A stretch of 64,000 nucleotides of DNA from SAR324 cluster bacterium (GCA_028282885.1 JANQGX010000032.1:86439-150438); one strand, 5' to 3'; numbered from the stretch's first letter, positions 10,430-40,943 are shown. The notes: a model not told the origin generated them from the letters alone. Program-made: numbers and translations.

Positions 10430-10462
10430 AAAACCTGTCTCAAGACACTAGCTGAGACAGGT
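10430..10462 (-). terminator. rho-independent terminator after sterol-desaturase-family gene
   Basis: 11-bp perfect stem AACCTGTCTCA/TGAGACAGGTT followed on the minus strand by TTTTTCTT, 9 nt downstream of the stop at 10471. Confidence 0.5.
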
Positions 10463-16861: not shown

Positions 16862-19207
16862 ATGAAGTCATCAAAGTCGAGTTTGGGATCGGTCTCCGAA
16901 TGGTGGCAAAACAGGATCATCCGTACAAAGATACTGATTGGAATATTTGTGGGTGTATTTCTATTTCAAACCATCAGCACAACCTATCAAATGCAGCAGG
17001 TTGAAAAAGATATACTGGACACCTACAAACAGAATGCTCTCAACCTTTCCGTATCGGTCGATTGCATTATGCTCAAGGATCCCATTCTCTTTTTCAACCT
17101 GCTGGACCGAATCGGCAGAACAGAAGTGGTGGGAATCAAAATTGATGATAACCACCCTTCCTGCGTCGAACGCGACTCCTACCTGAAACGGTTGAAGAGT
17201 GCCTTTCTGGCAGAATTTGAACAGAAAAACCAATCAGACAACCAATCCGAACCTGTTCCGGCTGTTGATGAAGACATCGAGGTGATCAATGAAGAACCAG
17301 TAGAATCAAACCTCCCGGCGGCCACGCTGCTCAGCGGCAACGCTATCGACCTGAATTTCGATCTGGCAAGAGTCGAAGGTCAATTGGAGACAACGGAGAT
17401 CTTCATCAACGGAGAACTGCAACCCCAACTGCTCTATACGGTTAAAGTAAACGGGGTTGAGCTGACCTTCGACCTGACCGATCTGCCGGAACAGAAATTG
17501 AACCGCTTCCTGTTTCTCTTTTTCACCGCCCTGGGAAACCTGCTGGTCCTTTTTATTATCATCTGGCTGCTTAGTGGACGCCTGGTCGATCCGTTGAAGA
17601 AACTAACCCTTTTTGCACAGCATATCATGACCTCCGGAGTCCTTGAATCCGGGGGCGATATCGGACAGGTCAAGATCGAAACCAGGGATGAGATAGGTAT
17701 CCTGGCCAGGGCGATCAACAATATGACGGCAAAAATCCAGCAAAGCTACCGCCAGATCATTAAAAGCAAGGCTGCCATTGGCGATCTGCTGAATAATACC
17801 GGCCAAGGATTTTTCAGCTTCGGACCGGATTACTTGATAGATGAGGAGTATTCCAAAGCCTGTGACCTCTATTTTAAATCTTCTATATCGGGCCTGAATG
17901 CCCTGGAACTGATGGTGCCTGAGAATCTGAAAGAGGTAAAAGAGCTAACCGATCTCCTGTTTGACGGTGTCGGGGATCTCTCCCTGCTGGAAGATCTGCT
18001 GCCACGGGAGATATCTCTTCACCGGAGAATCCTGTCTGTGGAATATCGATTCATTAAGGCTGCCGGAGAAGAGCTGAAGGATAAGATGATGGTCATTCTG
18101 ACCGACATCACCCAGGAGAGAGAGCTTGAACACCAATTACAGAAAGATGAAGCCCTCAACGAACTGGTCATCAAAATAGCCAGGGACAGGGATGGTTTTA
18201 TGCAATTCGTTCAGGACACCAACAAGCTTTTGGGTTCTATGTCAACCGATCTGAAAGATCCGTCAGTGACGATTGACCCGGTAGCGGTTATGCATGACCT
18301 GCACACTGTCAAGGGTATTTCAGCCAGCTACGGCCTGGGCACCGTTGCAGAAACAACCCATCGCATCGAGGACTGGATTCAGGAAACAGGACCCGATGAG
18401 GTCTTTTCCAGCGGGGAGAATATTAAATCACTGGAATCATCCCTGCTTGAGCTGCGGCGAAACCTGAAGGATTCATTGGAGAATGTAAGGGATATCATCA
18501 CCTGGGACGAGATTGTTGGCAGCAAGCAGCGGTATTACAAAGTCAATGAGGAAAAAGTGGTGAGGCTGGAGGCAATGTTCAGCGATACCAAAAAGGTTCG
18601 TCTGAATGAGATTCGACAGGCTCTCTATGAGTTCCGTAAAGAGCCAATTCTGCCGGTTTTCAGGAAGTACGCGGGAACAGCCGAGAAGCTGGCAGAAAAA
18701 CTGGGCAAGCAGATCAAAGTGGAACTGGCAGGCACCGACGTGGAAGTTTTTTACAAACGTCTTGAACCCCTGTTTGATGTATTGGTACATCTGGTGCGAA
18801 ACTCGGTAGATCATGGTTTGGAATCTACTGAAAAACGATTGAAAACGGGGAAACCGGAAACCGGGGTCCTGGAACTGTCGGCCGGCTATCAGGACAATGA
18901 TCTGATCCTTGCGATAGCCGATGACGGTGGCGGTATTGAAACAGCTAAGGTGGTTAAGGCAGCCCTGGAGCGAGGGCTGATAACCGCAGAAGAGGCAGAT
19001 CAACTGGGGCAGGATGATGCCATCAGGTTGTTATTCAAACCCGGATTTTCAACCAGCGAAAGTGTCTCGGATATTTCCGGGCGAGGTATAGGCATGGACG
19101 CTGTAAAGTCCAAGGTTGCGGAACTGGGTGGCTCCATCTCGGTAAAAACCCGGAAAGGCAGAGGCACCACCTTTAGAATCCGGATTCCCGATCACCCATC
19201 GTCATGA
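16862..19207 (+). CDS. membrane sensor kinase with HAMP, Hpt and CheA-type ATPase domains
   Basis: 781 aa: TM - ~170-aa periplasmic region - TM - HAMP; Hpt-like motif HTVKGISASYG; CheA-like N box HLVRNSVDHGLE, G1 DDGGGIE, G2 GRGIGMDAV; no CheW-like or receiver domain. Confidence 0.7.
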   Translation: MKSSKSSLGSVSEWWQNRIIRTKILIGIFVGVFLFQTISTTYQMQQVEKDILDTYKQNALNLSVSVDCIMLKDPILFFNLLDRIGRTEVVGIKIDDNHPSCVERDSYLKRLKSAFLAEFEQKNQSDNQSEPVPAVDEDIEVINEEPVESNLPAATLLSGNAIDLNFDLARVEGQLETTEIFINGELQPQLLYTVKVNGVELTFDLTDLPEQKLNRFLFLFFTALGNLLVLFIIIWLLSGRLVDPLKKLTLFAQHIMTSGVLESGGDIGQVKIETRDEIGILARAINNMTAKIQQSYRQIIKSKAAIGDLLNNTGQGFFSFGPDYLIDEEYSKACDLYFKSSISGLNALELMVPENLKEVKELTDLLFDGVGDLSLLEDLLPREISLHRRILSVEYRFIKAAGEELKDKMMVILTDITQERELEHQLQKDEALNELVIKIARDRDGFMQFVQDTNKLLGSMSTDLKDPSVTIDPVAVMHDLHTVKGISASYGLGTVAETTHRIEDWIQETGPDEVFSSGENIKSLESSLLELRRNLKDSLENVRDIITWDEIVGSKQRYYKVNEEKVVRLEAMFSDTKKVRLNEIRQALYEFRKEPILPVFRKYAGTAEKLAEKLGKQIKVELAGTDVEVFYKRLEPLFDVLVHLVRNSVDHGLESTEKRLKTGKPETGVLELSAGYQDNDLILAIADDGGGIETAKVVKAALERGLITAEEADQLGQDDAIRLLFKPGFSTSESVSDISGRGIGMDAVKSKVAELGGSISVKTRKGRGTTFRIRIPDHPSS

Positions 19208-20296: not shown

Positions 20297-21139
20297 ATGA
20301 AATGGAATAGTATAATAAACAAAGTGGAGACCATCTCCATTGAGGATGCCAAGGCATATTTCAATTCTCACGGCTCCGACGAATACCAACTGGTAGATGT
20401 CCGGCAGCCCGAGGAATACAGCAAACGTCATCTTCCCGGTTCCCTTTTGATCCCTTTGGAAGAATTAATAGAAGGAAAGGGAGGCCTGGACAAGGAAAAA
20501 GCGGTTTTTGTTTACAGCGGAGGCAACAACCGCAGTCTGGCGGCCGGTCAGTGGCTTAATAGTCAGGGCTTTCGGGAGGTACGGTACCTGGAGGGTGGAA
20601 TCTCTTCCTGGTACGGAGAGCTGGCCTTTGGTCATTTCGAACTGAATCTGAATCTCCTGGATCCGAACGTGGAATATGAAGATGCCATCAGCATGGCCTA
20701 CGCCATGGAAGAGGGTCTGCAACAGTTTTACATCATGCTTGCCCGGGAAACGGAAGATGAAGCGTTTAAGAGGCTGTATCGTAAACTGGCTTCATTTGAG
20801 GTGGATCATAAACGCGACCTTTCCAGGATCTATTCCATCTCCCAGGGTAAAGAGATGGTTCAGAAGGAATTTGCCGAACATGACGGCCAGATTCTCGAAG
20901 GGGGCGGCTATGCCGATATCACCTTGATTAAGACCCTGGCTAACACCGAAAGCGCCCGGGACGTGTTTGGCCTTGCTGCCGCGTTTGAAACCCAGGCCAT
21001 GGATTTTTATACAAGGCTGGCGGTGAAAGCGGAAAAACCGGAGGTAAAAAAATTCTTTCTTGAGATGGCCGATGCCGAGAAAAAGCATCTGGCTTTTGTG
21101 GCCAGTGAACTGGACCAATATTTGAAAAAAAATAATTAA
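20297..21139 (+). CDS. rhodanese-domain / rubrerythrin-like (ferritin-like diiron) fusion protein
   Basis: N-terminal rhodanese fold (...VDVRQPEEY..., active-site loop VYSGGNNRS with Ser where the catalytic Cys is expected); C-terminal four-helix domain with two E...ExxH motifs (FEVDH; AEKKH). Confidence 0.7.
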   Translation: MKWNSIINKVETISIEDAKAYFNSHGSDEYQLVDVRQPEEYSKRHLPGSLLIPLEELIEGKGGLDKEKAVFVYSGGNNRSLAAGQWLNSQGFREVRYLEGGISSWYGELAFGHFELNLNLLDPNVEYEDAISMAYAMEEGLQQFYIMLARETEDEAFKRLYRKLASFEVDHKRDLSRIYSISQGKEMVQKEFAEHDGQILEGGGYADITLIKTLANTESARDVFGLAAAFETQAMDFYTRLAVKAEKPEVKKFFLEMADAEKKHLAFVASELDQYLKKNN

Positions 21140-21813: not shown

Positions 21814-21914
21814 AAGCAAACCATTTGTTACTACTGTTCCGAACCAGCCTGGCCGGGAAGCCTGGCCCTGCTGCAATGAAGAGCAGTCAACCCTTAACCC
21901 GAAAAGGAGAAACC

Positions 21915-22424
21915 ATGGATCTCGGAGAAGCTATCAAAACAGCAATTGCGCTGGAAGACAAGATCGTTAACGTCTACACCAAGTACGCAGATAAGTTCAG
22001 CTCACCCGTTGCCAGCAAGATTTTCAAACTGCTGGGCGAAGAGGAAGAAGGCCATACCGCCTATTTAAAGGCGAAACTTGAGCAGTGGCAAAACTCGGGA
22101 AAGATTACCGTTGATGACATCAAAACCATTGTTCCCGACAAAGAGGTGATCAAGGAAAATGTTAAAAAACACAAAGCCGCGGCAAAACAGGCCAACATTG
22201 ATGACGAAATTGAAGTCTTCAAAAAGGCGTTGGAGATGGAAAGCCAAGCTTCGGCTTTTTACAAGGATCTTGTAGGTAAGCTGGCACCTGAAGACCAGGT
22301 TTTGTTCAAACGTTTTATCGAAATTGAAGAGGGACACGAAGCCATTGTCAAAGCCGAAATCGACAATGCACGAGGTTTCGGATTCTGGTTCGATTTTCAG
22401 GAATTTGATCTGGAAAGTGCATAG
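21915..22424 (+). CDS. rubrerythrin/ferritin-like diiron-carboxylate protein (paralog 1)
   Basis: Start at ATG 21915 (AAAAGGAGA RBS); two-repeat E...ExxH architecture (EEEGH; EEGHEAIV); paralogous to 26162..26677 and 28408..28884. Confidence 0.65.
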   Translation: MDLGEAIKTAIALEDKIVNVYTKYADKFSSPVASKIFKLLGEEEEGHTAYLKAKLEQWQNSGKITVDDIKTIVPDKEVIKENVKKHKAAAKQANIDDEIEVFKKALEMESQASAFYKDLVGKLAPEDQVLFKRFIEIEEGHEAIVKAEIDNARGFGFWFDFQEFDLESA

Positions 22425-22522: not shown

Positions 22523-23035
22523 ATGCTTACAGAAAAAATGGAAGCCAAGCTGAACGAGCATATTAATGCCGAACTCTATTCAGCTTATCTGTATCTATCC
22601 ATGTCGGCTTATTTCAAGTCGATTGATCTGCCCGGTTTTGTCAACTGGATGCAAGTACAATTCGAAGAAGAAATGTCCCATGCGATGAAATTCTTTGAGT
22701 TTGTTGATAATATGAACGGTAGAATTCGCCTGGCGACTATCCAGGCGCCGCCTGTGGAATGGGAGTCTCCCGTTGAAGTCTTTCAGGAGACCTATGATCA
22801 TGAGCGTTCGGTCTCCGAACAGATCTTTAAGCTGGTGAGCCTGTCGCTGGAAGAAAATGACCATGCCACCAATAACTTCCTGCAATGGTTTGTTGCAGAG
22901 CAGGTCGAAGAGGAATCATCGGTGAAATCAATCCTCAGTAAGCTGAAATTTATCGGGGATTCCAAGTCAGGACTCTTCATGGTGGACCAGGAGCTGGCCA
23001 AACGGACCGTCTCAACGGACACGGCACCTGTGTAA
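22523..23035 (+). CDS. ftnA: non-heme ferritin
   Basis: 170 aa with classic Ftn ferroxidase-centre residues (...NAELYSAYLYLSMSAY...EEEMSHAMKFFEF...QETYDHE...). Confidence 0.85.
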   Translation: MLTEKMEAKLNEHINAELYSAYLYLSMSAYFKSIDLPGFVNWMQVQFEEEMSHAMKFFEFVDNMNGRIRLATIQAPPVEWESPVEVFQETYDHERSVSEQIFKLVSLSLEENDHATNNFLQWFVAEQVEEESSVKSILSKLKFIGDSKSGLFMVDQELAKRTVSTDTAPV

Positions 23036-23133: not shown

Positions 23134-23490
23134 ATGAAAAAAGCAACCATCTATCACAATCCCAAGTGAAGCACCAGTAGAAAAGCACTGGCAGTGCTTG
23201 AAGAGAGTGGTGTGGAATTCCGAATCGTTGAATACCTGAAAAACCCACCTTCGGTGGCTGAATTGAAAAAAATAGCCAAAGGGATCGGAGTCGATCCTGT
23301 TGAATTGCTTCGACCAAAAGACAAACGCTTTAAAGAACTGGGATTGTCCAAGAAAGATGACAGGAGCCAGGATGATTGGTTACGCCTGATGAACAAAAAT
23401 CCCAGTATCATTGAACGTCCCATCGTGGCATATGCAGGTAAATATGCCATGGGAAGACCGCCGGAAAGCATTTGGGAAATTCTGAACTGA
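23134..23490 (+). CDS. arsC: ArsC-family arsenate reductase/thiol-disulfide protein with in-frame TGA (putative selenocysteine) at the catalytic-Cys position
   Basis: ATG 23134...MKKATIYHNPK-TGA(23167-23169)-STSRKALAVLEESGVEFRIVEYLKNPPS... matches E. coli ArsC TIYHNPACGTSRNTLEMI...YLENPPS...; TGA aligns with Cys12; same frame as ORF-track 23194..23490; 7-bp stem-loop 23183..23199 lies 13 nt after TGA (SECIS-like). Confidence 0.65.
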
Positions 23491-23547: not shown

Positions 23548-25239
23548 ATGGATATTGATATTTCAATAAAAATTGGCGGTGAAGCCGGGCAGGGTATCCA
23601 GACTGTGGGTGACCTCCTGGCCAATGTCTGCCGTGAAGCAGGGCTCTATATCACTGGCATCAATGATTTCGAGTCCAGAATCAGGGGCGGACACAGTTAT
23701 TTTCAGATCAGAATATGCAATACGTCGGTTTCAGCTCCGGAAACCACTGCCCACATGGTGGTTGCGCTGAATGAACAGACCTATGAGTTGCATCACCAGG
23801 ATATTCATGAGGGTGGGCTTGTTATAATGGATGCCCGTGAAGCCCCGGCTGAAAACGTGATTGCGGTTCCCATCAGGGAGTTGGCAGTGGAAGCCGGGGG
23901 CAGGGTGATGGCCAACACGGTTGCTGTCGGTGCTGTGCTCGGTTTGCTGGGTGCCCCTTTTCACATCCTGGAAGGCTTGCTGACCAGACGCTTTTCCAGA
24001 AAAAGCCAACAGATCGTGGATAACAATATTGCAGCTGCCAAACTGGGTTTTGAGGCCGTCAAAGATACTTCTTTCAAATGGTCCTTCGACTGGAACAGGG
24101 GAGAACCCAAGGGAACCCTTATCAACGGTTCTAAAGCGGTAGCTCTCGGGGCTCTGGCTGCAGATTGTCGATTCGCCGCATTTTACCCCATGTCTCCGGC
24201 TACCTCCGTCATGCAGGATCTGAACTCCTTTTCCGGTAAAATTCCCATGATAGTGGAACAGGTGGAGGATGAGATCGCCGCAGTCAACGCCATCATTGGG
24301 GCTTCATATGCCGGGATTCGATCAATGACCTCCACGTCGGGCGGCGGATTTTCCCTGATGGTGGAAGGACTCGGTCTGGCCGGGATTACGGAAACTCCTA
24401 TTGTTGTCGTCGATGCCCAACGACCCGGACCTGCTACCGGATTGCCGACCCGTACCGCCCAACCCGACCTGCTTTTTGCCATCAGGGCGTCCCAGGACGA
24501 ATTCCCCAGGTTTGTGCTGGCCCCGGGATCGCCGGGAGAGGCCTATACCATTACCACCAGGGCGTTCGAACTGGCCGACAAGTACCAGGTGCCGGTTATC
24601 ATCCTGGTTGACCAGTATCTCTGCGACTCTCTCTTTATCGAAGAGAACCCATTTAAAATTCCCACCGAGATTAATCGTTATACCGTCACCGACGAGGATA
24701 TGGCTGACCCGAGACAATATGTCCGTTATGCCCTGACCGAAGACGGCGTCTCTCCAAGAGCCCTGCCATGCAATGGTGAAGCCCTGGTGATGGCCTCCGG
24801 GAATGAGCATACGGAAGACGGCCATATCAGTGAAGATCCTGCCAACCGGGTTGCCATGATGGATAAACGCGCCGCTAAAATCCCGAGGATGATTGATGAA
24901 CTGGATCCGCCCGAAACTTATCATGGTGAAAGCGAATTGCTGGTTGTGGGATGGGGATCCACCAGGGGCGCTATCAGAGAAGCGGTAGAGATCCTGAGAA
25001 ACGGGGGAATGGATATCGGCTGCCTGCATTTCACGGACATCTGGCCGTTTCCCACAGATGTTGTGACGGCCGCACTTGAAAAAGCCGAACGGTTTGTCAT
25101 GGTGGAGCAAAACTCATCGGCCCAGTTTGGACAGTTGATCAGGGAACAAACCGGTCTGTCTTACTCCGCATCAATCCTCAAATATGACGGCAGGCCTTTC
25201 TATACTGATGAGGTTGTTGAGAAAATCAAACAGATATAA
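23548..25239 (+). CDS. 2-oxoacid:ferredoxin oxidoreductase, fused gamma/alpha subunit
   Basis: 563 aa; N-terminal gamma-like domain (MDIDISIKIGGEAGQGIQTVGDLLA...) followed by alpha (KorA-like) domains. Confidence 0.8.
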   Translation: MDIDISIKIGGEAGQGIQTVGDLLANVCREAGLYITGINDFESRIRGGHSYFQIRICNTSVSAPETTAHMVVALNEQTYELHHQDIHEGGLVIMDAREAPAENVIAVPIRELAVEAGGRVMANTVAVGAVLGLLGAPFHILEGLLTRRFSRKSQQIVDNNIAAAKLGFEAVKDTSFKWSFDWNRGEPKGTLINGSKAVALGALAADCRFAAFYPMSPATSVMQDLNSFSGKIPMIVEQVEDEIAAVNAIIGASYAGIRSMTSTSGGGFSLMVEGLGLAGITETPIVVVDAQRPGPATGLPTRTAQPDLLFAIRASQDEFPRFVLAPGSPGEAYTITTRAFELADKYQVPVIILVDQYLCDSLFIEENPFKIPTEINRYTVTDEDMADPRQYVRYALTEDGVSPRALPCNGEALVMASGNEHTEDGHISEDPANRVAMMDKRAAKIPRMIDELDPPETYHGESELLVVGWGSTRGAIREAVEILRNGGMDIGCLHFTDIWPFPTDVVTAALEKAERFVMVEQNSSAQFGQLIREQTGLSYSASILKYDGRPFYTDEVVEKIKQI

Positions 25240-25250
25240 GGAGCAGGATC

Positions 25251-26105
25251 ATGGTGAAAATCGAAGATTATCATAATGACTACGAAAACAAATGGTGCCC
25301 GGGTTGCGGAAACTTCGGCCTTTTGGATGCCATGAAAGATGCACTGGTCAACCTGGATATTGCTCCCCGTGATATTCTCCTCATTTCCGGAATCGGTCAG
25401 GCTGCCAAAACGCCCCATTTCATGAATTGTAATTTCTTTCACACCCTACACGGCCGGGCATTGCCGATTGCAACCGGTGCCAAGCTGGCCAATCATGACC
25501 TGAAAATTCTGGTTAATTCGGGGGATGGAGATTGCTATGGTGAGGGGGGGAATCATTTTATCAATGCCATTCGTCGCAATCTGGATATCACCCTTTTGGT
25601 TCATCACAACAAGGTTTATGGTTTGACCAAAGGCCAAGCAGCTCCGACATCGGATATGGGATTTGTCACCCCGCAACAACCCGATGGCGTCAGAACTGAT
25701 CCGTTGAATCCAGTCAAACTAGCACTCAGTCTGGGAGCGAGTTTTGTGGCAAGGGGATTTTCCAACAACCGGAAGCACCTGAGCCGGTTGATACAGGATG
25801 CCATCCAGTACAGGGGATTCTCCCTGGTGGACATACTTCAGCCCTGTGTCACCTATAACAAGATCAATTCCCACGCCTGGTTCAAGAAGCGGGCTTATGA
25901 TCTGTATGAAACGGATTACCAACCCGATAAACTGGACGAGGCACTCTTTCTGGCCGAGGAGTGGGAAGATAAAATCCCAATTGGTATTCTTTATCGTAAG
26001 GATTCAATTCCCTTTCATGAAAGAATAGGCCAGCTCAAAGAGGGAACATTGATATCTCGTCCTTATGATGCGGCGACGATTCAGGAAATTCTCTCCGCGG
26101 TCTGA
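25251..26105 (+). CDS. 2-oxoacid:ferredoxin oxidoreductase beta subunit (TPP-binding)
   Basis: 284 aa, CPGCG N-terminal motif and TPP-binding GDGDCYGEGGNHFINAIRRN; 12 nt downstream of alpha gene. Confidence 0.8.
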   Translation: MVKIEDYHNDYENKWCPGCGNFGLLDAMKDALVNLDIAPRDILLISGIGQAAKTPHFMNCNFFHTLHGRALPIATGAKLANHDLKILVNSGDGDCYGEGGNHFINAIRRNLDITLLVHHNKVYGLTKGQAAPTSDMGFVTPQQPDGVRTDPLNPVKLALSLGASFVARGFSNNRKHLSRLIQDAIQYRGFSLVDILQPCVTYNKINSHAWFKKRAYDLYETDYQPDKLDEALFLAEEWEDKIPIGILYRKDSIPFHERIGQLKEGTLISRPYDAATIQEILSAV

Positions 26106-26161: not shown

Positions 26162-26677
26162 CTAACCATCCAGCAGGGATTTTTCGGAACTCATCATCCA
26201 GCCTTCCGGATCTTCAAAGTAGAGCAGGGTGTTTTCCAGCGACGCCACGTGTTTGTGTTCAACGGCAGCCATATATTCGAAAAACTTTTTCTCATCCGGA
26301 TCTTCGGTTTTTTTGATCAGATCCTTGTAAAAGAGATGGGCTTTGGTTTCGAAATCGATGGCAATCTGCACTGCTTCCCTGTCATCGGTCGTTGATTTGG
26401 CGGCTCCCTCGGCGGATGCAATCATCTCTTTCAATCCTTCCTTGATATCGGTTTCATCCACAACAGGTGATATCTCCTCCGGCCATTCCCCCCTCTCTTC
26501 AAGGTTTTTGTGAATCTTCAGCAACTGCTCATAGTGCATGTCCTCTTCTTTGGCGATGGTTTCGAACATTTTTTTTCCAACCGGATTGGTCACCTTCTTG
26601 CTCAATGTGGTATAGTAATCCTTCTCTTCTTTTTCATTGTTTAATGCTACCTCGATAGCTTTTAAACTTGGCTTCAT
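26162..26677 (-). CDS. rubrerythrin/ferritin-like diiron-carboxylate protein (paralog 2)
   Basis: 171 aa; two E...ExxH repeats (EEDMH; EHKH); paralog of 21915..22424 and 28408..28884. Confidence 0.65.
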   Translation of the reverse strand: MKPSLKAIEVALNNEKEEKDYYTTLSKKVTNPVGKKMFETIAKEEDMHYEQLLKIHKNLEERGEWPEEISPVVDETDIKEGLKEMIASAEGAAKSTTDDREAVQIAIDFETKAHLFYKDLIKKTEDPDEKKFFEYMAAVEHKHVASLENTLLYFEDPEGWMMSSEKSLLDG

Positions 26678-26989
26678 GGGTTTCTCCTTCTTCCGGTGTT
26701 GATGATAATCAAGTACCTATCCGGCCCTGTATACCCCGCAACCGTTCCAAATAGGTACCATAATGCGTTGTCAAACCTCAATCAGGATGTATCAGTGCTA
26801 CATCCCTCCGTTTTCGGTCTCGGACCTTCGCAACTCTGTTCAGATTTTTATATTTTTCCCACAAGGCGGGATGGATATAAAAAAATTCTGCAAAGCCTGT
26901 GCCCGCTTTTTTCCCGATTTCATGGGATTTTCCCTCCCGAGGGCCTCAATCCGCCATGAGAAAGAGGGATAAAGCGTATTGTACAACTA

Positions 26990-27002
26990 TGTATCATAAA
27001 AA
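26990..27002. promoter_or_regulatory. TGTATCATAAAAA motif copy 1 (Fur/PerR-like hexamer array) in divergent promoter region
   Basis: 13-nt motif repeated exactly at 27227..27239; surrounding sequence carries nATwAT-type hexamers typical of Fur-family boxes. Confidence 0.3.
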
Positions 27003-27226
27003 CCTATGAGACATAAGCATTATTTAAAAGATCAATAATTCTAAAAATGTACACTCGAAACTGAACATTAATCTGTCCTATGGCTGCAGGATTCGGAGCT
27101 GTGTGACATTTTTTATTTTGAAAAGTTTGGACATTTGCCATGGAATCCTGTATAAAGACTATATAAATCAAATGATTAAAAAAATGGCACGCATCCTGAA
27201 ACATAGAGATCAAAAATTATCATCAT

Positions 27227-27239
27227 TGTATCATAAAAA
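27227..27239. promoter_or_regulatory. TGTATCATAAAAA motif copy 2 (context TTATCATCATTGTATCATAA)
   Basis: Exact repeat of 26990..27002; 34 nt upstream of the small ORF/rubrerythrin gene pair. Confidence 0.3.
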
Positions 27240-27272
27240 TCAGTCAAAACCAATTTTCCAGAGGCTAGATAA

Positions 27273-27485
27273 GTGGAGTTAAGGAGATGCGACCAGAACA
27301 TTATTGAGACACTCAAACTGGTCGAAAAGATGTTAAAGCTGGCGCAGCAGGGTGATGCTGAAAGGGAGGATGTTGCCTGTGGAGTGTTGTACGGGGTTAT
27401 GCTCGATTCCGCTTTTAAGATTAAAAAGCTGGCGGAACAGGAGAGAGACTCGCATATCAAAAAAGGCTGGTGGAAAAAAGCCTGA
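27273..27485 (+). CDS. small hypothetical protein (70 aa, GTG start)
   Basis: ORF directly upstream of rubrerythrin; helical, no motif; start uncertain. Confidence 0.3.
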   Translation: MELRRCDQNIIETLKLVEKMLKLAQQGDAEREDVACGVLYGVMLDSAFKIKKLAEQERDSHIKKGWWKKA

Positions 27486-27540
27486 AGTTTTCCATGCTCT
27501 CATAATTCTATGAGATTTTTTATTCAACCCAAAATCAGGA

Positions 27541-28098
27541 GTGTTTATGAAAAAATGGGTATGTTCAGTATGTGGTTATGTTCATGATGGTGATAACCCG
27601 CCGGAGGAGTGTCCGCAATGTAAGGCCAGCTCGGATAAGTTTTACGAGCAACAGGCAGGTGATCTCGCATGGGCAGATGAACACAGGATTGGTGTGGCAG
27701 CGAAGGATATTGATCCTGAGGTTCTGGATGGATTAAGGGCGAATTTTACGGGTGAATGCACGGAAGTTGGGATGTACCTTGCCATGAGCCGTCAGGCGGA
27801 TCGGGAAGGGTATCCGGAGGTTGCAGAAGCCTACAAGCGTATAGCCTGGGAGGAGGCTGAGCACGCATCCAAGTTTGCGGAGTTATTGGGCGAAGTGGTT
27901 GTAGCCGACACCAAAGCCAATCTCAAGGCAAGAGTTGAAGCTGAGCACGGTGCCTGCAAAGGCAAAAAGGATTTGGCAACCAAAGCCAAGCAGCTCAACT
28001 ATGATGCCATCCACGACACCGTTCACGAAATGTGCAAAGACGAAGCCCGACATGGTGCTGCCTTTGCCGGATTGCTCAAGCGATACTTCGGTGAATAG
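27541..28098 (+). CDS. rbr: reverse rubrerythrin (N-terminal rubredoxin-like domain + diiron ferritin-like domain)
   Basis: N-terminal CSVCGY...CPQCKA FeCys4 knuckles followed by rubrerythrin diiron domain ([16 protein letters not shown]...EEAEHASKF...; [12 protein letters not shown]...CKDEARHG). Confidence 0.85.
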
Positions 28099-28407
28099 GG
28101 TCGGATTCAATCGATCATTTGTTTAGATTCTAATTCCACCATACCATGATTTAACCGGGAAGCGGGTTGAAATTCATAACAGTTTGTCTTGTTAAAAGGA
28201 AATCATGTCTGGTATGAATACCTTTAAGACAAAACGTTAAGATGTTGATCTCCCCTTGCTCGAACATGCGGAACTCTTCCGATATGATGCGGGGGCGAAG
28301 ACAACAAATTGAGTCCCGTGATCGATGAGGGGTAATGGCTTTAAGAAGCGAAAAAGCGATTATCCCTCCCGCTGATCGATCATGCCAAACATTAATGGAG
28401 AATTGTG

Positions 28408-28884
28408 ATGTATCATAAGTTTAATGCCAAGGCTATTTTGGAAATGGCTGAAAACATTGAAAAAAACGGATATGCCTTTTATCGAAAGGCAGCAGATGAT
28501 GTTAAAGACCCTGAAATCAAAACTTTTTTGCTGGAACTGGCCGAAATGGAAGTCGGGCACGAGAAGTTATTTACCTCCATGAAATCAAAACTTTCGGACA
28601 AAGAGAGTGAAGATATCGTTTTCGATCCCTATGATGAAGCTGCTCTTTATATTGAGGCCCTGGCCGACACCAGGGTGTTCTATGAAAAGACCATCGATAC
28701 CTCGTCAGCGGAAGAGGTTTTCAAAGCAGCTATTGAAGCAGAGAAAGAATCCATCGTATTTTACCTGGGGATGAAAGAACTGGTTCCCGATGAGGCCGGG
28801 AAAGATAAAATTCAAGAAATCATCAAAGAAGAGATGAAGCACATTCAGACCATCAGCAAAAAGCTGCTGGCTATTAAAAGATAA
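28408..28884 (+). CDS. rubrerythrin/ferritin-like diiron-carboxylate protein (paralog 3)
   Basis: Start at ATG 28408 (GGAG RBS 7 nt upstream); two E...ExxH repeats (EMEVGHE; EEMKH). Confidence 0.65.
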   Translation: MYHKFNAKAILEMAENIEKNGYAFYRKAADDVKDPEIKTFLLELAEMEVGHEKLFTSMKSKLSDKESEDIVFDPYDEAALYIEALADTRVFYEKTIDTSSAEEVFKAAIEAEKESIVFYLGMKELVPDEAGKDKIQEIIKEEMKHIQTISKKLLAIKR

Positions 28885-29021
28885 CATTCGTCCGGGTGTT
28901 TTGGCTTTCACCCGCTACCAAAAATCGCTGACAGTGTCCTGTTCACCCTCCTGTTTGCCGGAAGACACCGGCAACCGGATTTTTATCATAAACCCAAACA
29001 CACTTAACAACGGAGAAGAAA

Positions 29022-29183
29022 ATGGCAAAATACAGATGTGAAACCTGCGACTACATTTACGATCCTGCCGAAGGTGATCCCGATTCCGGAATCGATCCCG
29101 GCACTTCGTTTGAGGACCTGCCGGATGATTGGGAATGTCCCGTTTGCGGCGTCGGCAAGGAAGACTTTGTCAAAGAGGGATAG
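29022..29183 (+). CDS. rd: rubredoxin (53 aa; absent from ORF track)
   Basis: [53 protein letters not shown]; canonical CxxC...CPxCG; GGAGAAGAAA RBS; 5 nt upstream of flavodiiron gene. Confidence 0.85.
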
Positions 29184-29188
29184 GAGAT

Positions 29189-30373
29189 ATGCACACGGAA
29201 ACAATTAAGGAAGGGATATACTGGGTAGGCGCTATCGATTGGGATGTAAGGAACTTTCACGGTTACCTGACCCAGCAGGGAACCAGCTATAACGCTTACC
29301 TGATTATAGATGAGAAGATCACCCTGGTGGATACCGTAAAGCCGGATAAATTCGGACAGATGATCGACCGAATCAGTCGCTACGTTGACCCCTCCAGGAT
29401 AGACTATGTCCTCTCCAATCATGTGGAAATGGATCATTCGGGAGGTATTCCCGAACTGATGGAATTGATTCCACAGGCAACCGTTATCACCTCTAAAGCC
29501 GGTGAAAAAGGGCTACGCCAACACTATAAAAAAGAGTGGAACTTTCGGGTCGTGAAATCCGGTGACAGCATCGACATTGGAAAACGAACTCTCAGTTTTG
29601 TTAATACGCCGATGGTGCACTGGCCGGACTCCATGGTGACCTATATTCCTGAGGAGAAGATACTTTTCTCCAATGATGCCTTCGGGCAGCATCTGGCAAC
29701 TTCCGAACGGTTTGATGACGAGCTTGGCTGGAGCGCCGTCAGAAAAGATGCCGCCAAATACTACGCCAACATCGTTTTGCCGTTTGGTAAACAGGTACAA
29801 AAAGCTCTTTCCGCCCTCTCTTCCATGGAAATCGAATTGATAGCACCAAGCCATGGCCTGATGTGGAAATCTCACATTCAGAAGATTATGGCGGAATATC
29901 AGAAATGGTCTAACCACGAAGCTCCCAATAGAGCCCTGATCGTTTATGACTCGATGTGGCAATCAACAGAGAAAATAGCAACCGCACTGGAAAAAGGCCT
30001 GTCCGAATCCGGAATCTACACAACCTTGCGTAATTTAAAGGTTAATCATATTTCGAACATTATGCCGGATGTGATGGAATCGAAACTGGTTCTGCTGGGA
30101 TCTCCTACTTTGAATAACAGTATACTGCCTACCATGGGTCAGTTTTTAACCTACCTCAGGGGACTCAAACCGCAGAACAAGATCGGATTTGCCTTTGGTT
30201 CCTACGGTTGGGGCGGTCAAGCTGTCAAAGAGCTGGTCCAAACCATCGAGGATTTAAACTGGGAAAATCCCCTGGAGGGAGTCAATATTGAATATATTCC
30301 CGATACCGAGGAACTGTCTGCAACGGTGGATATCGGAAAAAGCCTTGCAGAAATTTTGATGAAGTCAAATTGA
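29189..30373 (+). CDS. roo: flavodiiron protein (rubredoxin:oxygen oxidoreductase / FprA-type)
   Basis: Start re-assigned to ATG 29189 (GGGATAGGAG RBS) rather than 29129, which overlaps rubredoxin; metallo-beta-lactamase-like diiron motif HVEMDHSGG; C-terminal flavodoxin-like domain (ALIVYDSMWQSTEKIA). Confidence 0.85.
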   Translation: MHTETIKEGIYWVGAIDWDVRNFHGYLTQQGTSYNAYLIIDEKITLVDTVKPDKFGQMIDRISRYVDPSRIDYVLSNHVEMDHSGGIPELMELIPQATVITSKAGEKGLRQHYKKEWNFRVVKSGDSIDIGKRTLSFVNTPMVHWPDSMVTYIPEEKILFSNDAFGQHLATSERFDDELGWSAVRKDAAKYYANIVLPFGKQVQKALSALSSMEIELIAPSHGLMWKSHIQKIMAEYQKWSNHEAPNRALIVYDSMWQSTEKIATALEKGLSESGIYTTLRNLKVNHISNIMPDVMESKLVLLGSPTLNNSILPTMGQFLTYLRGLKPQNKIGFAFGSYGWGGQAVKELVQTIEDLNWENPLEGVNIEYIPDTEELSATVDIGKSLAEILMKSN

Positions 30374-30621
30374 TGTGGTAGTCTTAATCAGAATCAGTCC
30401 GTTCCTCAATGGAAAGATTAATTCCTGATCCGAAAGCGCTCCGAATCATCACTTTTTGGAGGGGCTTATGTTTTTCGATAAGGTATCATAGGGGCTGATC
30501 AACTCTGGTGTTAAAACTCCCGACATTCGGTTACGTCGGGAGATTGACAAATTTATCGGTGGTCGGTTTCAAACTGCAGACCCCGTTCCAACAGCATATA
30601 ACTGCAAAAGGAGGTAAACCT

Positions 30622-31944
30622 ATGGATCCAGTTTTATTAGCGCGAATCCAGTTTGCTGTTACGGTGGGATTCCACTATATTTTCCCAACCATCACACTGG
30701 GATTGGCTTTTCTGATCGTTATATTTCTTGGATTGTATCTGAAAAAGGAAGACGAGTTGTATGAAAAAATAGCCCGTTTCTGGATTGGAATTTTTGCCAT
30801 CGTATTTTCCATGGGGGTGGCTACGGGGATTGTAATGGAGTTTCAGTTCGGCACCAATTGGGAGAAATATTCCAGATTTGTCGGTGATATCTTCGGGGCA
30901 CCTTTAGCAGCCGAAGGCGTTTTTGCCTTTTTTCTGGAGTCCACCTTTTTAGGAATTCTGCTCTTCGGTCGGAACAAGGTTTCCAAAAAAGTGTACTTTA
31001 TTTCGGCCCTGATGGTATTGATCGGGTCCACCCTGTCCGCTTTCTGGATCATCGTTGCCAATTCCTGGCAGCAGACTCCGGCAGGATACCACATTATCAA
31101 TGGTCGGGCGGAACTGACCAGCTTCTTCGATGCTGTTTTTAATCCTTCCACACTTTACAGATACTCACATGCAGTGGTTGGTGGCTGGGTAACGGGTGGT
31201 TTCTTCGTAGCAGGGCTTAGCGGTTATTTCCTTTTGAAAAAACGACATGTCGAATTTGCCAAGCGCTCCATCTGGATCGCCCTGGTCTTTACCTTGATCA
31301 GTTCGGTTATTCAGATTGAACTGGGACATCTCCATTCAGTTCAGGTGACCAAAACCCAGCCTGAAAAGATGGCGACTTTCGAGTCCATGTTCGAATCCCA
31401 GGCCAATGCACCTCTGGTCATCCTGGGTATCCCCAACGAAGAAGAGAAAAGGATTGATTATGAAGTCAGTATCCCCGGACTATTGAGCTTTATGGTCGGT
31501 TTTGATTCGGATTACGTCGTCAAGGGACGTAATGATTTTCCTGCTGATGAACTGCCCCCGCTGATGCTTCCTTTCTTCTCCTACCGGGTAATGGTGGGGC
31601 TGGCATTTTACTTCCTCCTTGTTGCATTGATCGGAACCTATCTGGCCTGGAAAGATAAGATCGCAGATGCCAGGCGATACCTGTGGGTTTTGTTGCTCAC
31701 TATACCGCTACCGGTCATATCGAACGAGATGGGCTGGATTGCCGCCGAGGTAGGCAGGCAACCCTGGATTGTCTACCGGGAACTGAAAACAGCAGATGCC
31801 ATATCGACGGTTGTCTCCGCCGGAGAAATACTGTTTTCCCTGATCCTTTTCAGCGTTTTGTATGTTGTTCTTTTTTCTCTCTTTGTATTTCTGGTTCGGA
31901 AGAAGATGTTAAAGGGGCCGGAATCCGTTTCTGAAGCATACTAG
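30622..31944 (+). CDS. cydA: cytochrome bd ubiquinol oxidase subunit I
   Basis: Start at ATG 30622 (AAGGAGG RBS): MDPVLLARIQFAVTVGFHYIFPTITLG... canonical CydA N-terminus and Q-loop. Confidence 0.9.
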   Translation: MDPVLLARIQFAVTVGFHYIFPTITLGLAFLIVIFLGLYLKKEDELYEKIARFWIGIFAIVFSMGVATGIVMEFQFGTNWEKYSRFVGDIFGAPLAAEGVFAFFLESTFLGILLFGRNKVSKKVYFISALMVLIGSTLSAFWIIVANSWQQTPAGYHIINGRAELTSFFDAVFNPSTLYRYSHAVVGGWVTGGFFVAGLSGYFLLKKRHVEFAKRSIWIALVFTLISSVIQIELGHLHSVQVTKTQPEKMATFESMFESQANAPLVILGIPNEEEKRIDYEVSIPGLLSFMVGFDSDYVVKGRNDFPADELPPLMLPFFSYRVMVGLAFYFLLVALIGTYLAWKDKIADARRYLWVLLLTIPLPVISNEMGWIAAEVGRQPWIVYRELKTADAISTVVSAGEILFSLILFSVLYVVLFSLFVFLVRKKMLKGPESVSEAY

Positions 31945-31995
31945 GTAAAAAATTGTGAACTTGACTAAAAATAACATACAAAAGGGAGGGACATC

Positions 31996-32982
31996 ATGGA
32001 TCTGAACATTATCTGGTTTTTGCTGATTGGCGTCTTGCTGGTTGGATACTCTGTTCTTGACGGGTTCGACCTGGGAGCGGGAATCCTGCAATTGTTTACA
32101 AAAGGAGAAGAGGAGAAAAAAGCGCTTTTAAAATCGATAGCGCCATTCTGGGACGGAAACGAAGTCTGGTTGTTAACCGGGGGCGGGGCTCTCTTTGCCG
32201 CTTTTCCGCACGTCTATGCCACGGTTTTCAGCGGTTTTTACCTGGCTTTGATGCTGCTTCTGGTAGCCCTTATCTTCAGGGCTGTATCCATTGAATTCCG
32301 AAACCAGGTGGAATCCGAGGGTTGGAAGGGATTCTGGGACATAACCTTTACCGTCTCCAGTTTTGTCACAGCCCTGCTCCTGGGAGTAGCACTTGGTAAT
32401 ATCTTTACCGGAATTCCACTTGACGGTGAGATGAACTATACCGGCTCATTCTTCACTTTATTAAGGCCTCTGCCTCTGTTCGTCGGGCTGACCGGTGTGG
32501 CAATGATTATCACCCAGGGAGCTGCCTACTTGCTGATGAAAACGGATGGAGATCTGCAGGCAAGAGTCAAAGTTTGGATAAAACGTTCGTGGCTGGCTTT
32601 TGTCATTCTTTCGGTACTAACCACCCTGCTGACCCTTATCATTGATTCCAGTAAGGTTTCAGCGATATTCTGCGGATTAGCGGGTTGGATCGCACTGGCT
32701 GTGTTTCTGGTCGGGGTGATATTGGTGCGGGTATTTCTGGCAAAGGATGAATTTTTCAAGGTTTTTATCGCATCATCCCTGATCATTGTCTCCATGTTCC
32801 TGGTCGTGGGCGCCGCTATTTACCCGAATCTGGTACCTGCACTGGAGGCAGCGAACAGCCTGAATATCTACAACTCATCTTCCAGTCAACTGACCCTGAC
32901 TGTTATGCTGGTCATTGCCCTGATCGGAATGCCTGTTGTGATTGCTTATACAATCTACATTTACAGGGCTTTCAGGAAGTAG
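31996..32982 (+). CDS. cydB: cytochrome bd ubiquinol oxidase subunit II
   Basis: MDLNIIWFLLIGVLLVGYSVLDGFDLGAGIL... canonical CydB N-terminus; 328 aa multi-TM. Confidence 0.9.
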   Translation: MDLNIIWFLLIGVLLVGYSVLDGFDLGAGILQLFTKGEEEKKALLKSIAPFWDGNEVWLLTGGGALFAAFPHVYATVFSGFYLALMLLLVALIFRAVSIEFRNQVESEGWKGFWDITFTVSSFVTALLLGVALGNIFTGIPLDGEMNYTGSFFTLLRPLPLFVGLTGVAMIITQGAAYLLMKTDGDLQARVKVWIKRSWLAFVILSVLTTLLTLIIDSSKVSAIFCGLAGWIALAVFLVGVILVRVFLAKDEFFKVFIASSLIIVSMFLVVGAAIYPNLVPALEAANSLNIYNSSSSQLTLTVMLVIALIGMPVVIAYTIYIYRAFRK

Positions 32983-35814: not shown

Positions 35815-38601
35815 ATGAGTGGATCAATAACCGAGAAAGATCTGAAAAGGCACAAACTGCCAAGCCTGTTTACCGGTTTTGCTTTTGTGTTGCTGGCAAT
35901 CATTGTCGCCGATGCGGTGATCGTTATTCTTACCCGATTCGATCTCCGGGAGTTATTATCCCGGCAAAATGTTGATCCGTCTTCCCTGGTTGATTTTCAG
36001 TTTTTTGGATTCATTATCAAAACTTCCCTTGTAATGGCGGGAGTTGCCATTCTGATCCTTATCGCCCGGCAAAACACCACCATTGTCAGACAGTTGCAGA
36101 AGTCGATCAAACGGCAAAAAGAAAAAGAGGAACACAATCACACCAAATCGGCAGAACTTTCTGATATGATGAGGAGACTTGGGGACAAAAACAGGGATCT
36201 TGAGAAATACCAGGATCAGTTGGACAATGCCCTTTCCATAATTGCCCAAAAAGAAAGAGACCTGCGTATCATCTTTGAGAAATCTCCCTTGGGAATGATC
36301 AGGGTAGATGAAACTGGAGTGATCAGGGAGTTCAATGATCGCTCTTTTGAGATTTTGGGCTCCCAACGAGACAGACTTCAGGATTACCCGACTCTTGATA
36401 ACACCGTTCCCGAACTCCAAAAAACAATCAAACAGGCCATCAACGGGGAAAAAGCGATTTTTGAAGATACCTACACCTCGATAACCGGAACCCGTACTCT
36501 CTACATGAGGGTCATTGCCAATCCGGTCAATCCCGACAACCCCCCTACGGAAATCATCTGCTCTGTTGAGGATATTACCTATCGCAAAGAGATTGAAGAT
36601 CAGCTTTTGCAGTCCCGCGACAATCTTGAGAATCTGGTTAACCAGCGCACCACCGCTTTGCTGAGGGAGATTGAAGAAAGGAAACATGCCCAGGAAGAGT
36701 TAAGAAAAAGCGAAGAGCGTTATCGACTGATTACCGAGAACTCATCCGATGTGATCTGGACCCTCGATTTTTCAGGGAAATTCACTTATGTAAGTCCGTC
36801 CGTTAAACAACTGACCGGACATACCCAGGAGGAGATGCTGGCATTGCCAATGGATCAGACCCTTGTCCCCGAATCTGTGCAAAAGGTAATGAATACTCTT
36901 GAGCGGGAGTTGAGCAGACCGGAGGCCGAAAGAAAAACGCATGATTCCTTGGAGGTTCAACAATATACCAAAAACCGAGAAATCATCGATATCGAAGTAT
37001 CAGTAAGCTGGATTCTGGATGATGATAACCAGCCAATCGGTATCCAGGGCATCAGCAGGGATATTTCAGAGAGAAAACGGACAGAACAGGCGTTGCTTAA
37101 AAGTGAAGAAAAACACAGAACCATCCTGGAGAGCATTGATGACGCCTATTTCGAAAGCGATCTGGATGCCAATCTGACCTTCATCAATCGGGCTATGGAG
37201 GAGATGACCGGATATTCGGAAGCCGAACTGTTGGGGATACCCTTTCGGAAATATAACGATGAGAAGAGCTACGATATTGTTCACAATACTTTTTCCGAAG
37301 TCATCAAAACAGGCCGGAAACGTGGTCAGATCTACTGCAGCATTGTCACGAAGCAGAACAAAGTCAAACACATCGGTATGGTAGCAACCCCCAAAAGAGG
37401 TAAGGATGACACGATCATCGGCATCCAGGGAGTGGCCAGGGATATTACTGATCAGAGAAACCTGGAACAGAAACTGAGACAGACCCAGAAAATGGAGGCT
37501 ATCGGTAACCTCGCAGGTGGGGTTGCCCATGATTTCAATAATATTCTGGGCGGAATCCTGGGCTATGCCCAGTTAATTAAAAGCCATCCCGATTCCAAAA
37601 CCCGGGTTCTCTCTTTTGTGGATCATATCATTAAAGCCAGCAGCAGGGCGACCGGACTGATTAACCAGATTCTGCTCTTTTCCCGAAAAGGAGAAAGCCG
37701 GAAAATTCCCACCGATCTGGGCCTGATTACTGAAGAGGTGCTTAAACTCTTGCGAGCGTCAATTCCTGCAACAATCAAGATCAAACATCACTTTGAGAGC
37801 AATCTCAATCCGGTCCTGGCCGATCAGACACAGATTCACCAGGTCCTCATGAACCTGAGTAACAATGCGGCCCATGCCATGCGAGAGAACGGTGGCACTC
37901 TTGAGTTAAAACTGGAAAACTACTGGATCAACGAATCGGAAATCTTTAAATCTCCTGGTATGTCTTTGGGCTCCCATGTAAAACTATCGTTGATAGATAC
38001 GGGGCACGGGATGGATACAGCCACGCTGGAACGAATCTTTGATCCCTATTTCACAACAAAAAAGCAGGGAGAAGGAACCGGTCTTGGCCTGTCAAGTGTT
38101 CATGGCATAGTAGAGGACCATGGTGGCCACATACAGGTGGAAAGCCAACCCGGAGTAGGTACGACATTCTTCGTCTGCCTGCCTGCTATCGAACAGAATA
38201 TTGAGTCTGCAGAACTGGAGGATGATGCTCCCATGGGAAGTGAATCGATCCTCTTTGTGGATGATGAGGAATATCTCAGCAGTATCGGGAAAGAGATGCT
38301 GGAAGACTATGGTTACTCCGTTGAGGCATTGACAAATCCTGTTGAAGCCTTGAAGCTTTTTGAAGAGAATCCCGACAGGTTTGATCTCCTTATTACTGAT
38401 TTCACCATGCCGGAGATGACGGGGGACAAACTGGTTGACCGTATTCTGGAATTAAAGTCCCAATTTCCGGTTATCATGTGCACGGGGATTGTTCTTCCTC
38501 CCGAGATTCAGCAAAAACCAGGAATCAGCAGAATCGTCATGAAACCCCTGGATATGTACGCCCTCTTGAAAGTCATCAGGAAAACCCTGGACTCAAAATA
38601 G
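35815..38601 (+). CDS. hybrid sensor histidine kinase (TM, multiple PAS, HisKA, HATPase, C-terminal receiver)
   Basis: 928 aa; H-box HDFNNILGGILGYAQL, N/G boxes (NLSNNAAHAM; DTGHGMD; GTGLGLS), receiver ILFVDDEEY...DLLITDFTMPEMTG. Confidence 0.85.
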   Translation: MSGSITEKDLKRHKLPSLFTGFAFVLLAIIVADAVIVILTRFDLRELLSRQNVDPSSLVDFQFFGFIIKTSLVMAGVAILILIARQNTTIVRQLQKSIKRQKEKEEHNHTKSAELSDMMRRLGDKNRDLEKYQDQLDNALSIIAQKERDLRIIFEKSPLGMIRVDETGVIREFNDRSFEILGSQRDRLQDYPTLDNTVPELQKTIKQAINGEKAIFEDTYTSITGTRTLYMRVIANPVNPDNPPTEIICSVEDITYRKEIEDQLLQSRDNLENLVNQRTTALLREIEERKHAQEELRKSEERYRLITENSSDVIWTLDFSGKFTYVSPSVKQLTGHTQEEMLALPMDQTLVPESVQKVMNTLERELSRPEAERKTHDSLEVQQYTKNREIIDIEVSVSWILDDDNQPIGIQGISRDISERKRTEQALLKSEEKHRTILESIDDAYFESDLDANLTFINRAMEEMTGYSEAELLGIPFRKYNDEKSYDIVHNTFSEVIKTGRKRGQIYCSIVTKQNKVKHIGMVATPKRGKDDTIIGIQGVARDITDQRNLEQKLRQTQKMEAIGNLAGGVAHDFNNILGGILGYAQLIKSHPDSKTRVLSFVDHIIKASSRATGLINQILLFSRKGESRKIPTDLGLITEEVLKLLRASIPATIKIKHHFESNLNPVLADQTQIHQVLMNLSNNAAHAMRENGGTLELKLENYWINESEIFKSPGMSLGSHVKLSLIDTGHGMDTATLERIFDPYFTTKKQGEGTGLGLSSVHGIVEDHGGHIQVESQPGVGTTFFVCLPAIEQNIESAELEDDAPMGSESILFVDDEEYLSSIGKEMLEDYGYSVEALTNPVEALKLFEENPDRFDLLITDFTMPEMTGDKLVDRILELKSQFPVIMCTGIVLPPEIQQKPGISRIVMKPLDMYALLKVIRKTLDSK

Positions 38602-40930: not shown

Positions 40931-40943
40931 ATCAAATCAAGAC

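Follow-up and report, generated by a model that had tools for sequence, protein, structure and literature searches.

Promoters of the sigma-54 type need an enhancer-binding protein (EBP). In strictly anaerobic sulfate reducers of the Desulfobacterales, the control of defence against O2 and reactive oxygen species is poorly known, and the textbook expectation is that it lies with PerR. We analysed a candidate regulatory word, the 13-mer TGTATCATAAAAA, in an island of oxygen-defence genes on a 64,000-nt stretch of DNA from a SAR324 cluster bacterium (GCA_028282885.1, JANQGX010000032.1:86439-150438). This whole stretch is hereafter called the window, and coordinates are counted from its first letter. 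The first-pass annotation of this DNA had connected the 13-mer and related TATCATA words with rubrerythrin (rbr), rubredoxin-Roo (rd-roo) and cytochrome bd (cydAB) genes and had suggested control by one regulator, possibly a PerR-like repressor of the Fur family. The two 13-mers stand as described, while the words before rd-roo and cydA are present yet within chance expectation and unconserved; likewise, a conserved cis-acting word for oxygen defence is supported, but a Fur/PerR repressor is not. We put at roughly 80% the probability that TGTATCATAAAAA carries the half-site TGT(A/C)TCA of the upstream activating sequence of a sigma-54 EBP, placed ahead of sigma-54 promoters.

The closest described systems involve both EBPs and repressors. 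OrpR of Desulfovibrio vulgaris Hildenborough is a sigma-54 EBP with a PAS-[4Fe-4S] redox sensor, which controls two divergent orp operons in a system that includes IHF; its [4Fe-4S] ligands are C52, C61 and C65, and it is active when reduced and off on oxidation (PMC8359166). PexR of Myxococcus xanthus is a GAF-sensor EBP that activates the sigma-54-dependent genes ahpC and katB on H2O2 (PMC12754779). Control of rbr, roo and ahpC by PerR and other Fur-family proteins has been described for Desulfovibrio, Geobacter and Desulfotalea (PMC545781). The system considered here differs from OrpR and PexR in binding site, targets and lineage. No sigma-54/EBP control of rubrerythrin or desulfoferrodoxin operons in Desulfobacterales is described in the searchable literature, which is incomplete, and such control of rubrerythrin/superoxide reductase (SOR) operons is mentioned neither in the D. 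vulgaris sigma-54 regulome nor in the 2025 cross-phylum sigma-54 survey. The regulatory signature is real, most probably with a mechanism other than Fur/PerR that has apparently gone undescribed.

Conserved half-sites upstream of sigma-54-type promoters

Related loci were anchored on a conserved 70-aa small open reading frame (ORF) and collected by an alignment-based scan with one genome per species. From more than 562 matches, 80 loci were taken, and together with L005, L007, L008, L011 and the window they make up a set of 85. The closest syntenic loci were fetched through homologues of the small ORF, namely L005 (83% identity) and L007 and L014 (~74%).

Of the 85 loci, 73 have the element TGGCAY-N5-YTG(A/C/T) at a distance of 50-160 bp ahead of the small ORF, and the consensus of these small-ORF promoters is TGGCAYRnATyTTGAw. 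An unbiased count of 7-mers in the 300 bp upstream of the sigma-54-type promoters, made against each locus's own background, ranked TGAGACA/TGTCTCA first (54 of 73 loci, 94 observed vs 5.9 expected) and TGATACA/TGTATCA second (37 loci, 50 observed vs 4.7 expected). TATCATA, TCATAAA and CATAAAA are likewise enriched upstream of the small-ORF promoters. The extended half-site, TGTMTCATAAA, is therefore essentially the 13-mer of the first-pass annotation.

The positions of the half-sites are also conserved. Against a background density of 0.7 per kb, they peak between -120 and -100 (35.7 per kb) and again between -240 and -200 (~17 per kb), an enrichment of up to 50 times. None lies between -80 and the promoter, and on its downstream side the density returns to background. 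Distal sites recurrently take the arrangement TGAKACA-N4-TGTMTCA-N10-TGAGACA, and proximal sites the arrangement TGTCTCA-N4-TGTCTCG. As in the upstream activating sequences of bacterial EBPs, repeated dyad or direct sites are found ~80-250 bp upstream of a sigma-54 promoter at a conserved position. Since sigma-54 promoters of an oxygen-defence operon are preceded by the half-site of the 13-mer in dozens of species of the Desulfobacterales, the protein bound there is most probably a redox-sensing sigma-54 activator and not Fur/PerR.

In the window, the exact 13-mer occurs twice, at 26990-27002 (copy 1) and 27227-27239 (copy 2), both on the plus strand. A 19-bp position weight matrix (PWM) was built from 188 half-sites of other species, with the window and L005 excluded from training, and was scored over the ~128,000 positions of the window. 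Copy 1 ranked first (26990, 16.9 bits) and copy 2 second (27227, 16.2 bits), followed by 27007 in 12th place, 28409 in 19th, the word before rd in 32nd and that before cydA in 62nd. PWM matches at 19063, 19238 and 19335, like the single ones elsewhere, lack any promoter context and were put down to chance.

The entire pattern, with the 13-mers, could be read as the chance recurrence of an AT-rich word, which we regard as most improbable and which is refuted for copy 1. Markov simulations of the 595-bp intergenic region, 2000 of each order, gave an exact direct repeat of at least 13 nt in 10 runs at first order and in 71 at second order (0.5-3.5%). Copy 1 is kept in sequence and position across dozens of species, and both copies top a PWM trained without the window. 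Chance does account for the shorter words. TATCATA occurs 10 times in the window, compared with 5.5 expected, and its cluster of five in 3.5 kb does not by itself survive a look-elsewhere correction, given that 0-10 same-strand 7-mers clustered in this way turn up in each simulated sequence. The fifth member of this cluster, overlooked in the first-pass annotation, is located at 28411-28417 over the start of an Rbr-like gene and reads ATGTATCATAAG. The sites outside the divergent region are as follows.

28409-28417, plus strand: TGTATCATA, which runs over the start codon of the Rbr-like gene 28408-28884 (codons M-Y-H-K) and has no promoter context
28982-28993, plus strand: TTTATCATAAAC upstream of rd-roo, overlapping the T-run after a terminator-like hairpin (28955-28974) and a possible -10 box (TATCAT)
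30482-30492, plus strand: GGTATCATAGG ahead of cydA, unsupported as a target of this regulator

Both upstream words exist where they had been reported, that of rd-roo with its coordinates shifted by one base, but as targets of the regulator they do not hold up. Each has a low PWM score and lacks an invariant core base (at the rd site, the invariant G), and each is absent in the four syntenic relatives L005, L007, L014 and L017, where no sigma-54 promoter precedes rd-roo or cydA. Both, like the word at 28409, owe their presence to the random recurrence of an AT-rich sequence, and the overlap of TGTATCATA with a start codon is probably coincidental. TATCAT was also considered as a sigma-70 -10 box; only weak pairs were found, with totals no higher than in shuffled sequences, and this role is still possible for the rd site alone.

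The divergent promoter region of the window

When the divergent region was aligned between the window, L005, L007 and L014, only three conserved islands were found, corresponding to a promoter on the minus strand, P(-), a dyad, and a promoter on the plus strand, P(+). The elements of the region are as follows.

26889-26904, minus strand: sigma-54-type promoter P(-), gGGCACAGGCTTTGCa, with a canonical GG-N10-GC and directed towards the Rbr-like gene 26162-26677
26979-27018, no strand assigned: candidate upstream activating block, TTGTACAACTATGTATCATAAAAACCTATGAGACATAAGC, made up of the dyad and a degenerate third half-site at 26979-26986
27166-27178, plus strand: exact match AATCAAATGATTA to the IHF consensus WATCAANNNNTTR, just upstream of P(+) and partly conserved in relatives
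27185-27200, plus strand: sigma-54-type promoter P(+), TGGCACGCATCCTGAA, 88 bp ahead of the small ORF
27227-27239, plus strand: copy 2 of the 13-mer, which fits the family half-site in full and falls in the 5' leader, ~17-29 nt after the predicted P(+) start

Island 1 is CTGCAAAGCCTGTGCC, whose minus-strand reading is gGGCACAGGCTTTGCa, and it is kept in L005, L007 and L014 as AGGCACAGGCTTTGCA and GGCACAGGCATTGCA. Island 3 is TGGCAYRCATCCTGAAA at 27185-27200, a -24/-12-type element. Compared with the consensus TGGCAC-N5-TTGCW, P(+) keeps the GG and its proper distance to TG, with A for the canonical -12 C (27197-27199). Doublet spacing (canonical in P(-)), location upstream of a gene and conservation among orthologues are all as in sigma-54 promoters. 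Transcription from P(+) would start near 27211, and that from P(-) near 26878.

Island 2, ATTATGTMTCATAAAACC...GAGACAT, comprises copy 1 and its inverted partner. The dyad is TGTATCA (26990-26996) - N10 - TGAGACA (27007-27013), of which copy 1 forms the left arm and part of the spacer. It is located at -109/-92 from P(-) and at -195/-178 from P(+), that is, at the proximal peak for the former and at the distal peak for the latter, and is therefore placed to serve both divergent promoters. The pattern TGTMTCA-N10-TGAKACA has 2 matches in the window, compared with 0.04 expected, and the dyad arrangement recurs at matching distances in 25 other loci.

The second match, a perfect TGTCTCA-N10-TGAGACA at 10436-10459, forms an 11-bp stem with a T-run on the minus strand just after a fatty-acid hydroxylase gene. 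It was rejected as an activator site, as it reads as an intrinsic terminator and no sigma-54 promoter is nearby. This resemblance lends some colour to the view that the inverted repeat at 26990-27013 is itself an RNA hairpin, such as a terminator, a small RNA or a leader structure, for it has 9-bp arms (with one A.G mismatch) and an 8-nt loop. We judge this very improbable. In other species the same word also occurs in direct repeats (TGTCTCA-N4-TGTCTCG) and everted pairs, from which the same hairpin cannot form, and loop length and arrangement vary while the 7-mer is fixed. The arm mismatch is kept in the window and L005 with no compensation, no T-run follows 26990-27013, and the repeat has no Rfam match. 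Because direct repeats occur besides inverted ones, TGTMTCA is better understood as a DNA-binding site.

The geometry also bears on the proposal that Fur-family (PerR-like) operators overlap sigma-70 promoters of rbr, rd-roo and cydAB. The target class (rubrerythrin, Roo, AhpC) is indeed the one under PerR/Fur control in related anaerobes, and in Desulfovibrio and Geobacter rbr itself answers to PerR (PMC545781). The AT-rich motif shares ATCAT with Fur hexamers, and 27217-27231 differs from the B. subtilis PerR box at 3 positions. However, no Fur box (GATAATGATNATCATTATC) is present in the window at up to 3 mismatches, PerR-box (TTATAATNATTATAA) matches occur at chance level (5 found vs 3.0 expected), and the TGTMTCA core is unlike any published delta-proteobacterial PerR or Fur box (PMC545781). 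The published operators overlap sigma-70 promoters and are palindromes of the form AwnAGnAAtngTTnCTnwT or GtTAATgATnATcATTAaC, whereas the sites here lie 90-240 bp upstream of -24/-12 promoters, with none from -80 to the promoter. This is the geometry of activator sites and the opposite of an operator. The "Fur-box-like hexamer array" that had been seen around copy 2 is unconserved even in the closest relative, and an EBP gene recurs beside the operon in related loci. The earlier remark that no perR or fur gene is visible in the window is correct, with no Fur domain among the ~44 ORFs tested, and the few related loci with precomputed Pfam gene calls show no Fur-family gene either. On these grounds, a repressor of the Fur family can hardly be credited.

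A redox-sensing EBP as candidate regulator

In other genomes, genes for an EBP with a GAFTGA AAA+ domain and a C-terminal HTH are found beside the sites. In 18 loci, a scan for GAFTGA located an EBP gene no more than 6 kb from the small ORF; of these EBPs, 16 are of a PAS-Cys type and two (L017, L068) of another type, and BLAST labelling added further loci. The gene is mostly located immediately upstream of the small-ORF operon and on the same strand. Its product has the Pfam architecture (GAF)-PAS-Sigma54_activat-AAA_lid-HTH_8, and no NCBIfam equivalog reaches its cut-off. Among 14 aligned EBPs, the PAS motif C-H-x6-F-C-G-x2-C (that is, C-x8-C-x3-C), for example GKDCHEAFGGPFCGxRCSF, is present in 12, the HTH region GGNKAKAARxLGVGRATLYRFL is common to all, and an extra N-terminal GAF domain is carried by seven. 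The EBPs of L043 (152-1531) and L067 (4266-5651) keep the AAA+ domain and HTH and have C-x9/10-C-x6-C-x2-C as sensor. These sensor swaps and the variable GAF domain thus point to one DNA-binding module combined with several sensor modules.

As a negative control, we used 80 metagenome loci with generic EBPs, at 37-55% identity among the matches listed, which are not orthologues. Paired half-sites were found in 2/80 of these control loci vs 61/80 small-ORF loci, and the HTH signature of the linked EBPs in 0/80 vs 18/80.

The regulator is rather more probably than not an OrpR-like redox-sensing EBP. Like OrpR, the linked EBPs are one-component PAS-AAA+-HTH_8 proteins with identical C-x8-C-x3-C spacing, for which an Fe-S cluster is predicted. 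Divergent sigma-54 promoters flank palindromic sites in both systems, with a possible IHF site here too, and the anaerobic lifestyle and redox theme are shared. OrpR, in contrast, binds GGGCGYRTTTTGCGCCC, whereas the sites here are TGTMTCA dyads. The OrpR regulon is limited to the orp (cell-division-related) operons, whereas the targets here are genes for rubrerythrin, SOR, cytochrome bd, Roo and AhpC, for which the sign of the response may be opposite. In many of the EBPs here a GAF domain is added at the N terminus, and two deviate in their Cys pattern. As sites and targets differ, the linked EBP would be an OrpR-like paralogue and not OrpR itself.

The likeness to PexR is that an EBP, not OxyR or PerR, would preside over peroxide and oxygen-defence genes, with multiple dyad repeats upstream of sigma-54 promoters. 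PexR remains bound at rest, gated by an N-terminal sensor domain, and the same may hold here. PexR differs in sensing through a Zn/Fe-binding GAF domain, in its sites (CACCG-n6-CGGTG), in its targets (ahpC, katB) and in belonging to the Myxococcota. The conserved sensor here is the PAS-Cys domain, while GAF is found in only half of the aligned EBPs.

Several observations weigh against an activator site read by such an EBP. At the small-ORF promoters, the -12 C is replaced by A in 42/52 cases (C in only 3), which is atypical for sigma-54; at other promoters with the same upstream sites the base is more often canonical (C 11, A 7, T 6 of 24). Copy 2 is not conserved in L005, L007 or L014, and half-sites downstream of promoters are at background across species. 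The terminator-like hairpin at 10436-10459 means that the dyad pattern alone is not fully specific. An EBP gene adjoins the operon in only about a quarter of loci. In the window, no Sigma54_activat domain was found among the ~44 ORFs tested, nor was an EBP gene found in ~6 kb beyond its left end or ~9 kb beyond its right end, one of these flanks carrying only genes for transport and redox functions, and the other a type I-C cas operon. The activator model presumes that the source genome encodes the EBP. Finally, L017, which has the gene order of the window and a reverse Rbr 87% identical, carries an EBP with a receiver domain, GAYTGA and a different HTH.

Some of these points could mean that the TGTMTCA sites are real but bound by another protein, either a response-regulator EBP as in L017 or a co-regulator that is not an EBP. 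The restricted adjacency of the PAS-Cys EBP is compatible with this. In L017, a PAS-type histidine kinase and the receiver-type EBP lie directly upstream of the small ORF (190-3817) with TGTMTCA sites still present, and a HAMP-Hpt-HATPase kinase is located upstream of the island in both the window and L005. The L017-type EBP was seen only once, however, whereas PAS-Cys EBPs with the invariant HTH recur beside the operon in many species and never in the generic-EBP control. Sigma-54 promoters moreover require an EBP, and the sites show classic activator geometry. Another binder is therefore unlikely, though it deserves more weight than a hairpin or a Fur-family operator.

If the sites do serve a sigma-54 activator, the one dyad at 26990-27013 between the divergent promoters would serve P(-) at about -100 and P(+) at about -190. 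EBP dimers on the dyad would assemble into a hexamer, and DNA looping, possibly aided by IHF at 27166-27178, a possible DNA-bending site, would bring it to the closed sigma-54 complexes, which ATP hydrolysis would open. The N-terminal PAS domain could gate this activity. Its C-x8-C-x3-C motif is that of the [4Fe-4S] sensor OrpR, so that the oxygen-defence genes would respond to redox state or O2. Copy 2 could be a lineage-specific extra site, an auto-inhibitory site or a recent duplication.

A broader reading for the Desulfobacteria can be put forward only tentatively, and as a whole it is somewhat less probable than not. Across the group, an oxygen-defence operon (small ORF, rubrerythrin, SOR, flavodoxin, cytochrome bd, rubredoxin and Roo) would be run by a dedicated sigma-54 regulon and not by PerR. 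An OrpR-like Fe-S PAS EBP would act on TGTMTCA dyads and would turn on as redox potential rises, opposite to OrpR. The 70-aa protein and the TTGA promoter would belong specifically to this circuit, the former perhaps as a feedback partner and the latter to tune the basal level, and copy 2 would be a lineage-specific extra or an auto-inhibitory leader site. Such a circuit is testable and is conserved in dozens of species, most of them uncultured; its parts are a promoter, a binding word of defined geometry, a candidate activator that would sense redox state, and a new small protein. If true, it would give the OrpR-type Fe-S PAS sensor a second job. The motif and promoter model are directly usable to annotate the regulon in metagenome-assembled genomes.

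Oxygen-defence genes and other features of the window

The gene identities named in the first-pass annotation were confirmed with Pfam. ORFs of the window were listed at a minimum length of 60 aa, and the genes of the island are as follows.

20297-21139: rhodanese-Rbr fusion (Pfam)
21825-22424: Rbr-like (Pfam)
22523-23035: ferritin (Pfam)
23194-23490: ArsC-family (Pfam)
23548-26105: 2-oxoacid:ferredoxin oxidoreductase (OFOR; Pfam)
26162-26677, minus strand: rubrerythrin-like (ferritin-like) gene (Pfam), divergently arranged and served by P(-), the divergence being kept in L005, L007 and L014
27273-27485, plus strand: 70-aa small ORF, first gene of the operon
27547-28098, plus strand: reverse rubrerythrin with an N-terminal rubredoxin-like and a diiron domain, second gene of the operon
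28408-28884: Rbr-like (Pfam)
29022-29183: rubredoxin, rd (Pfam)
29189-30373: flavodiiron Roo (Pfam)
30622-32982: cydAB (Pfam)

The small ORF has at least 385 homologues of 66-70 aa, at 57-86% identity and mostly from Desulfobacterales. It adjoins rbr, dfx and cydAB in nearly all loci and always heads the oxygen-defence operon, whose recurrent order by BLAST gene labels is small ORF, Rbr, desulfoferrodoxin, (ferritin), flavodoxin, a 79-aa ORF, cydAB, rd and roo. Its invariant residues are C6, D7, D28, R31, E32, C36 and H61, and the AlphaFold model predicts a two-helix hairpin (predicted local distance difference test, pLDDT, of 89). The protein has no Pfam or NCBIfam family, no sequence match in the PDB and no significant fold match.

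In other species, sigma-54 promoters with at least two upstream half-sites precede cydA, ahpC, dfx and several divergent genes. The idea of one regulator for several oxygen-defence operons is for this reason probable at the level of the family, although the rd and cydA sites of the window itself fail to support it. In the island, no other sigma-54 promoter was found before the rhodanese-Rbr, ferritin, arsC-OFOR, third Rbr-like, rd-roo or cydAB genes. Two candidates were rejected: TGGCAC at 19996 is paired with TTTCA at -12 and lies across a terminator-like hairpin, and a match at 27995 falls within the coding sequence of rbr.

Between rbr and the next Rbr-like gene, a block of ~60 nt (28178-28240, plus strand) is nearly identical in L005 and absent in L017, where the two genes abut. 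It folds as a long hairpin (-17.8 kcal/mol, z = -2.0) and has no Rfam match. A 54-aa rubredoxin gene, below the minimum length of the ORF list, is located at 9048-9212 (minus strand) between genes for Exo_endo_phos and CDP-alcohol phosphatidyltransferase proteins and is called in matching Logan contigs.

Signalling genes are also found in the window. PAS histidine kinases flank the island (16862-19207, 35815-38601 and 57048-59357), and a GGDEF diguanylate cyclase with a C-terminal hemerythrin domain (52204-53823, plus strand) could possibly take part in O2- or iron-responsive cyclic di-GMP signalling. Rfam returned no RNA family in the region of the operon, and its sole match in the window is a thiamine pyrophosphate (TPP) riboswitch, RF00059, at 40936-41026 (plus strand; 61.2 bits, above the gathering score). 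Towards the right end, a CRISPR array (~59500-62200) contains ~40 copies of GTTTCAATCCACGCTCCCGCGGGGGGAGCGAC with a period of ~66-68 and adjoins cas2 and cas1 (62446-63773, minus strand); past the window end, cas4, cas7, csd1, cas5d and cas3 make up a type I-C system.

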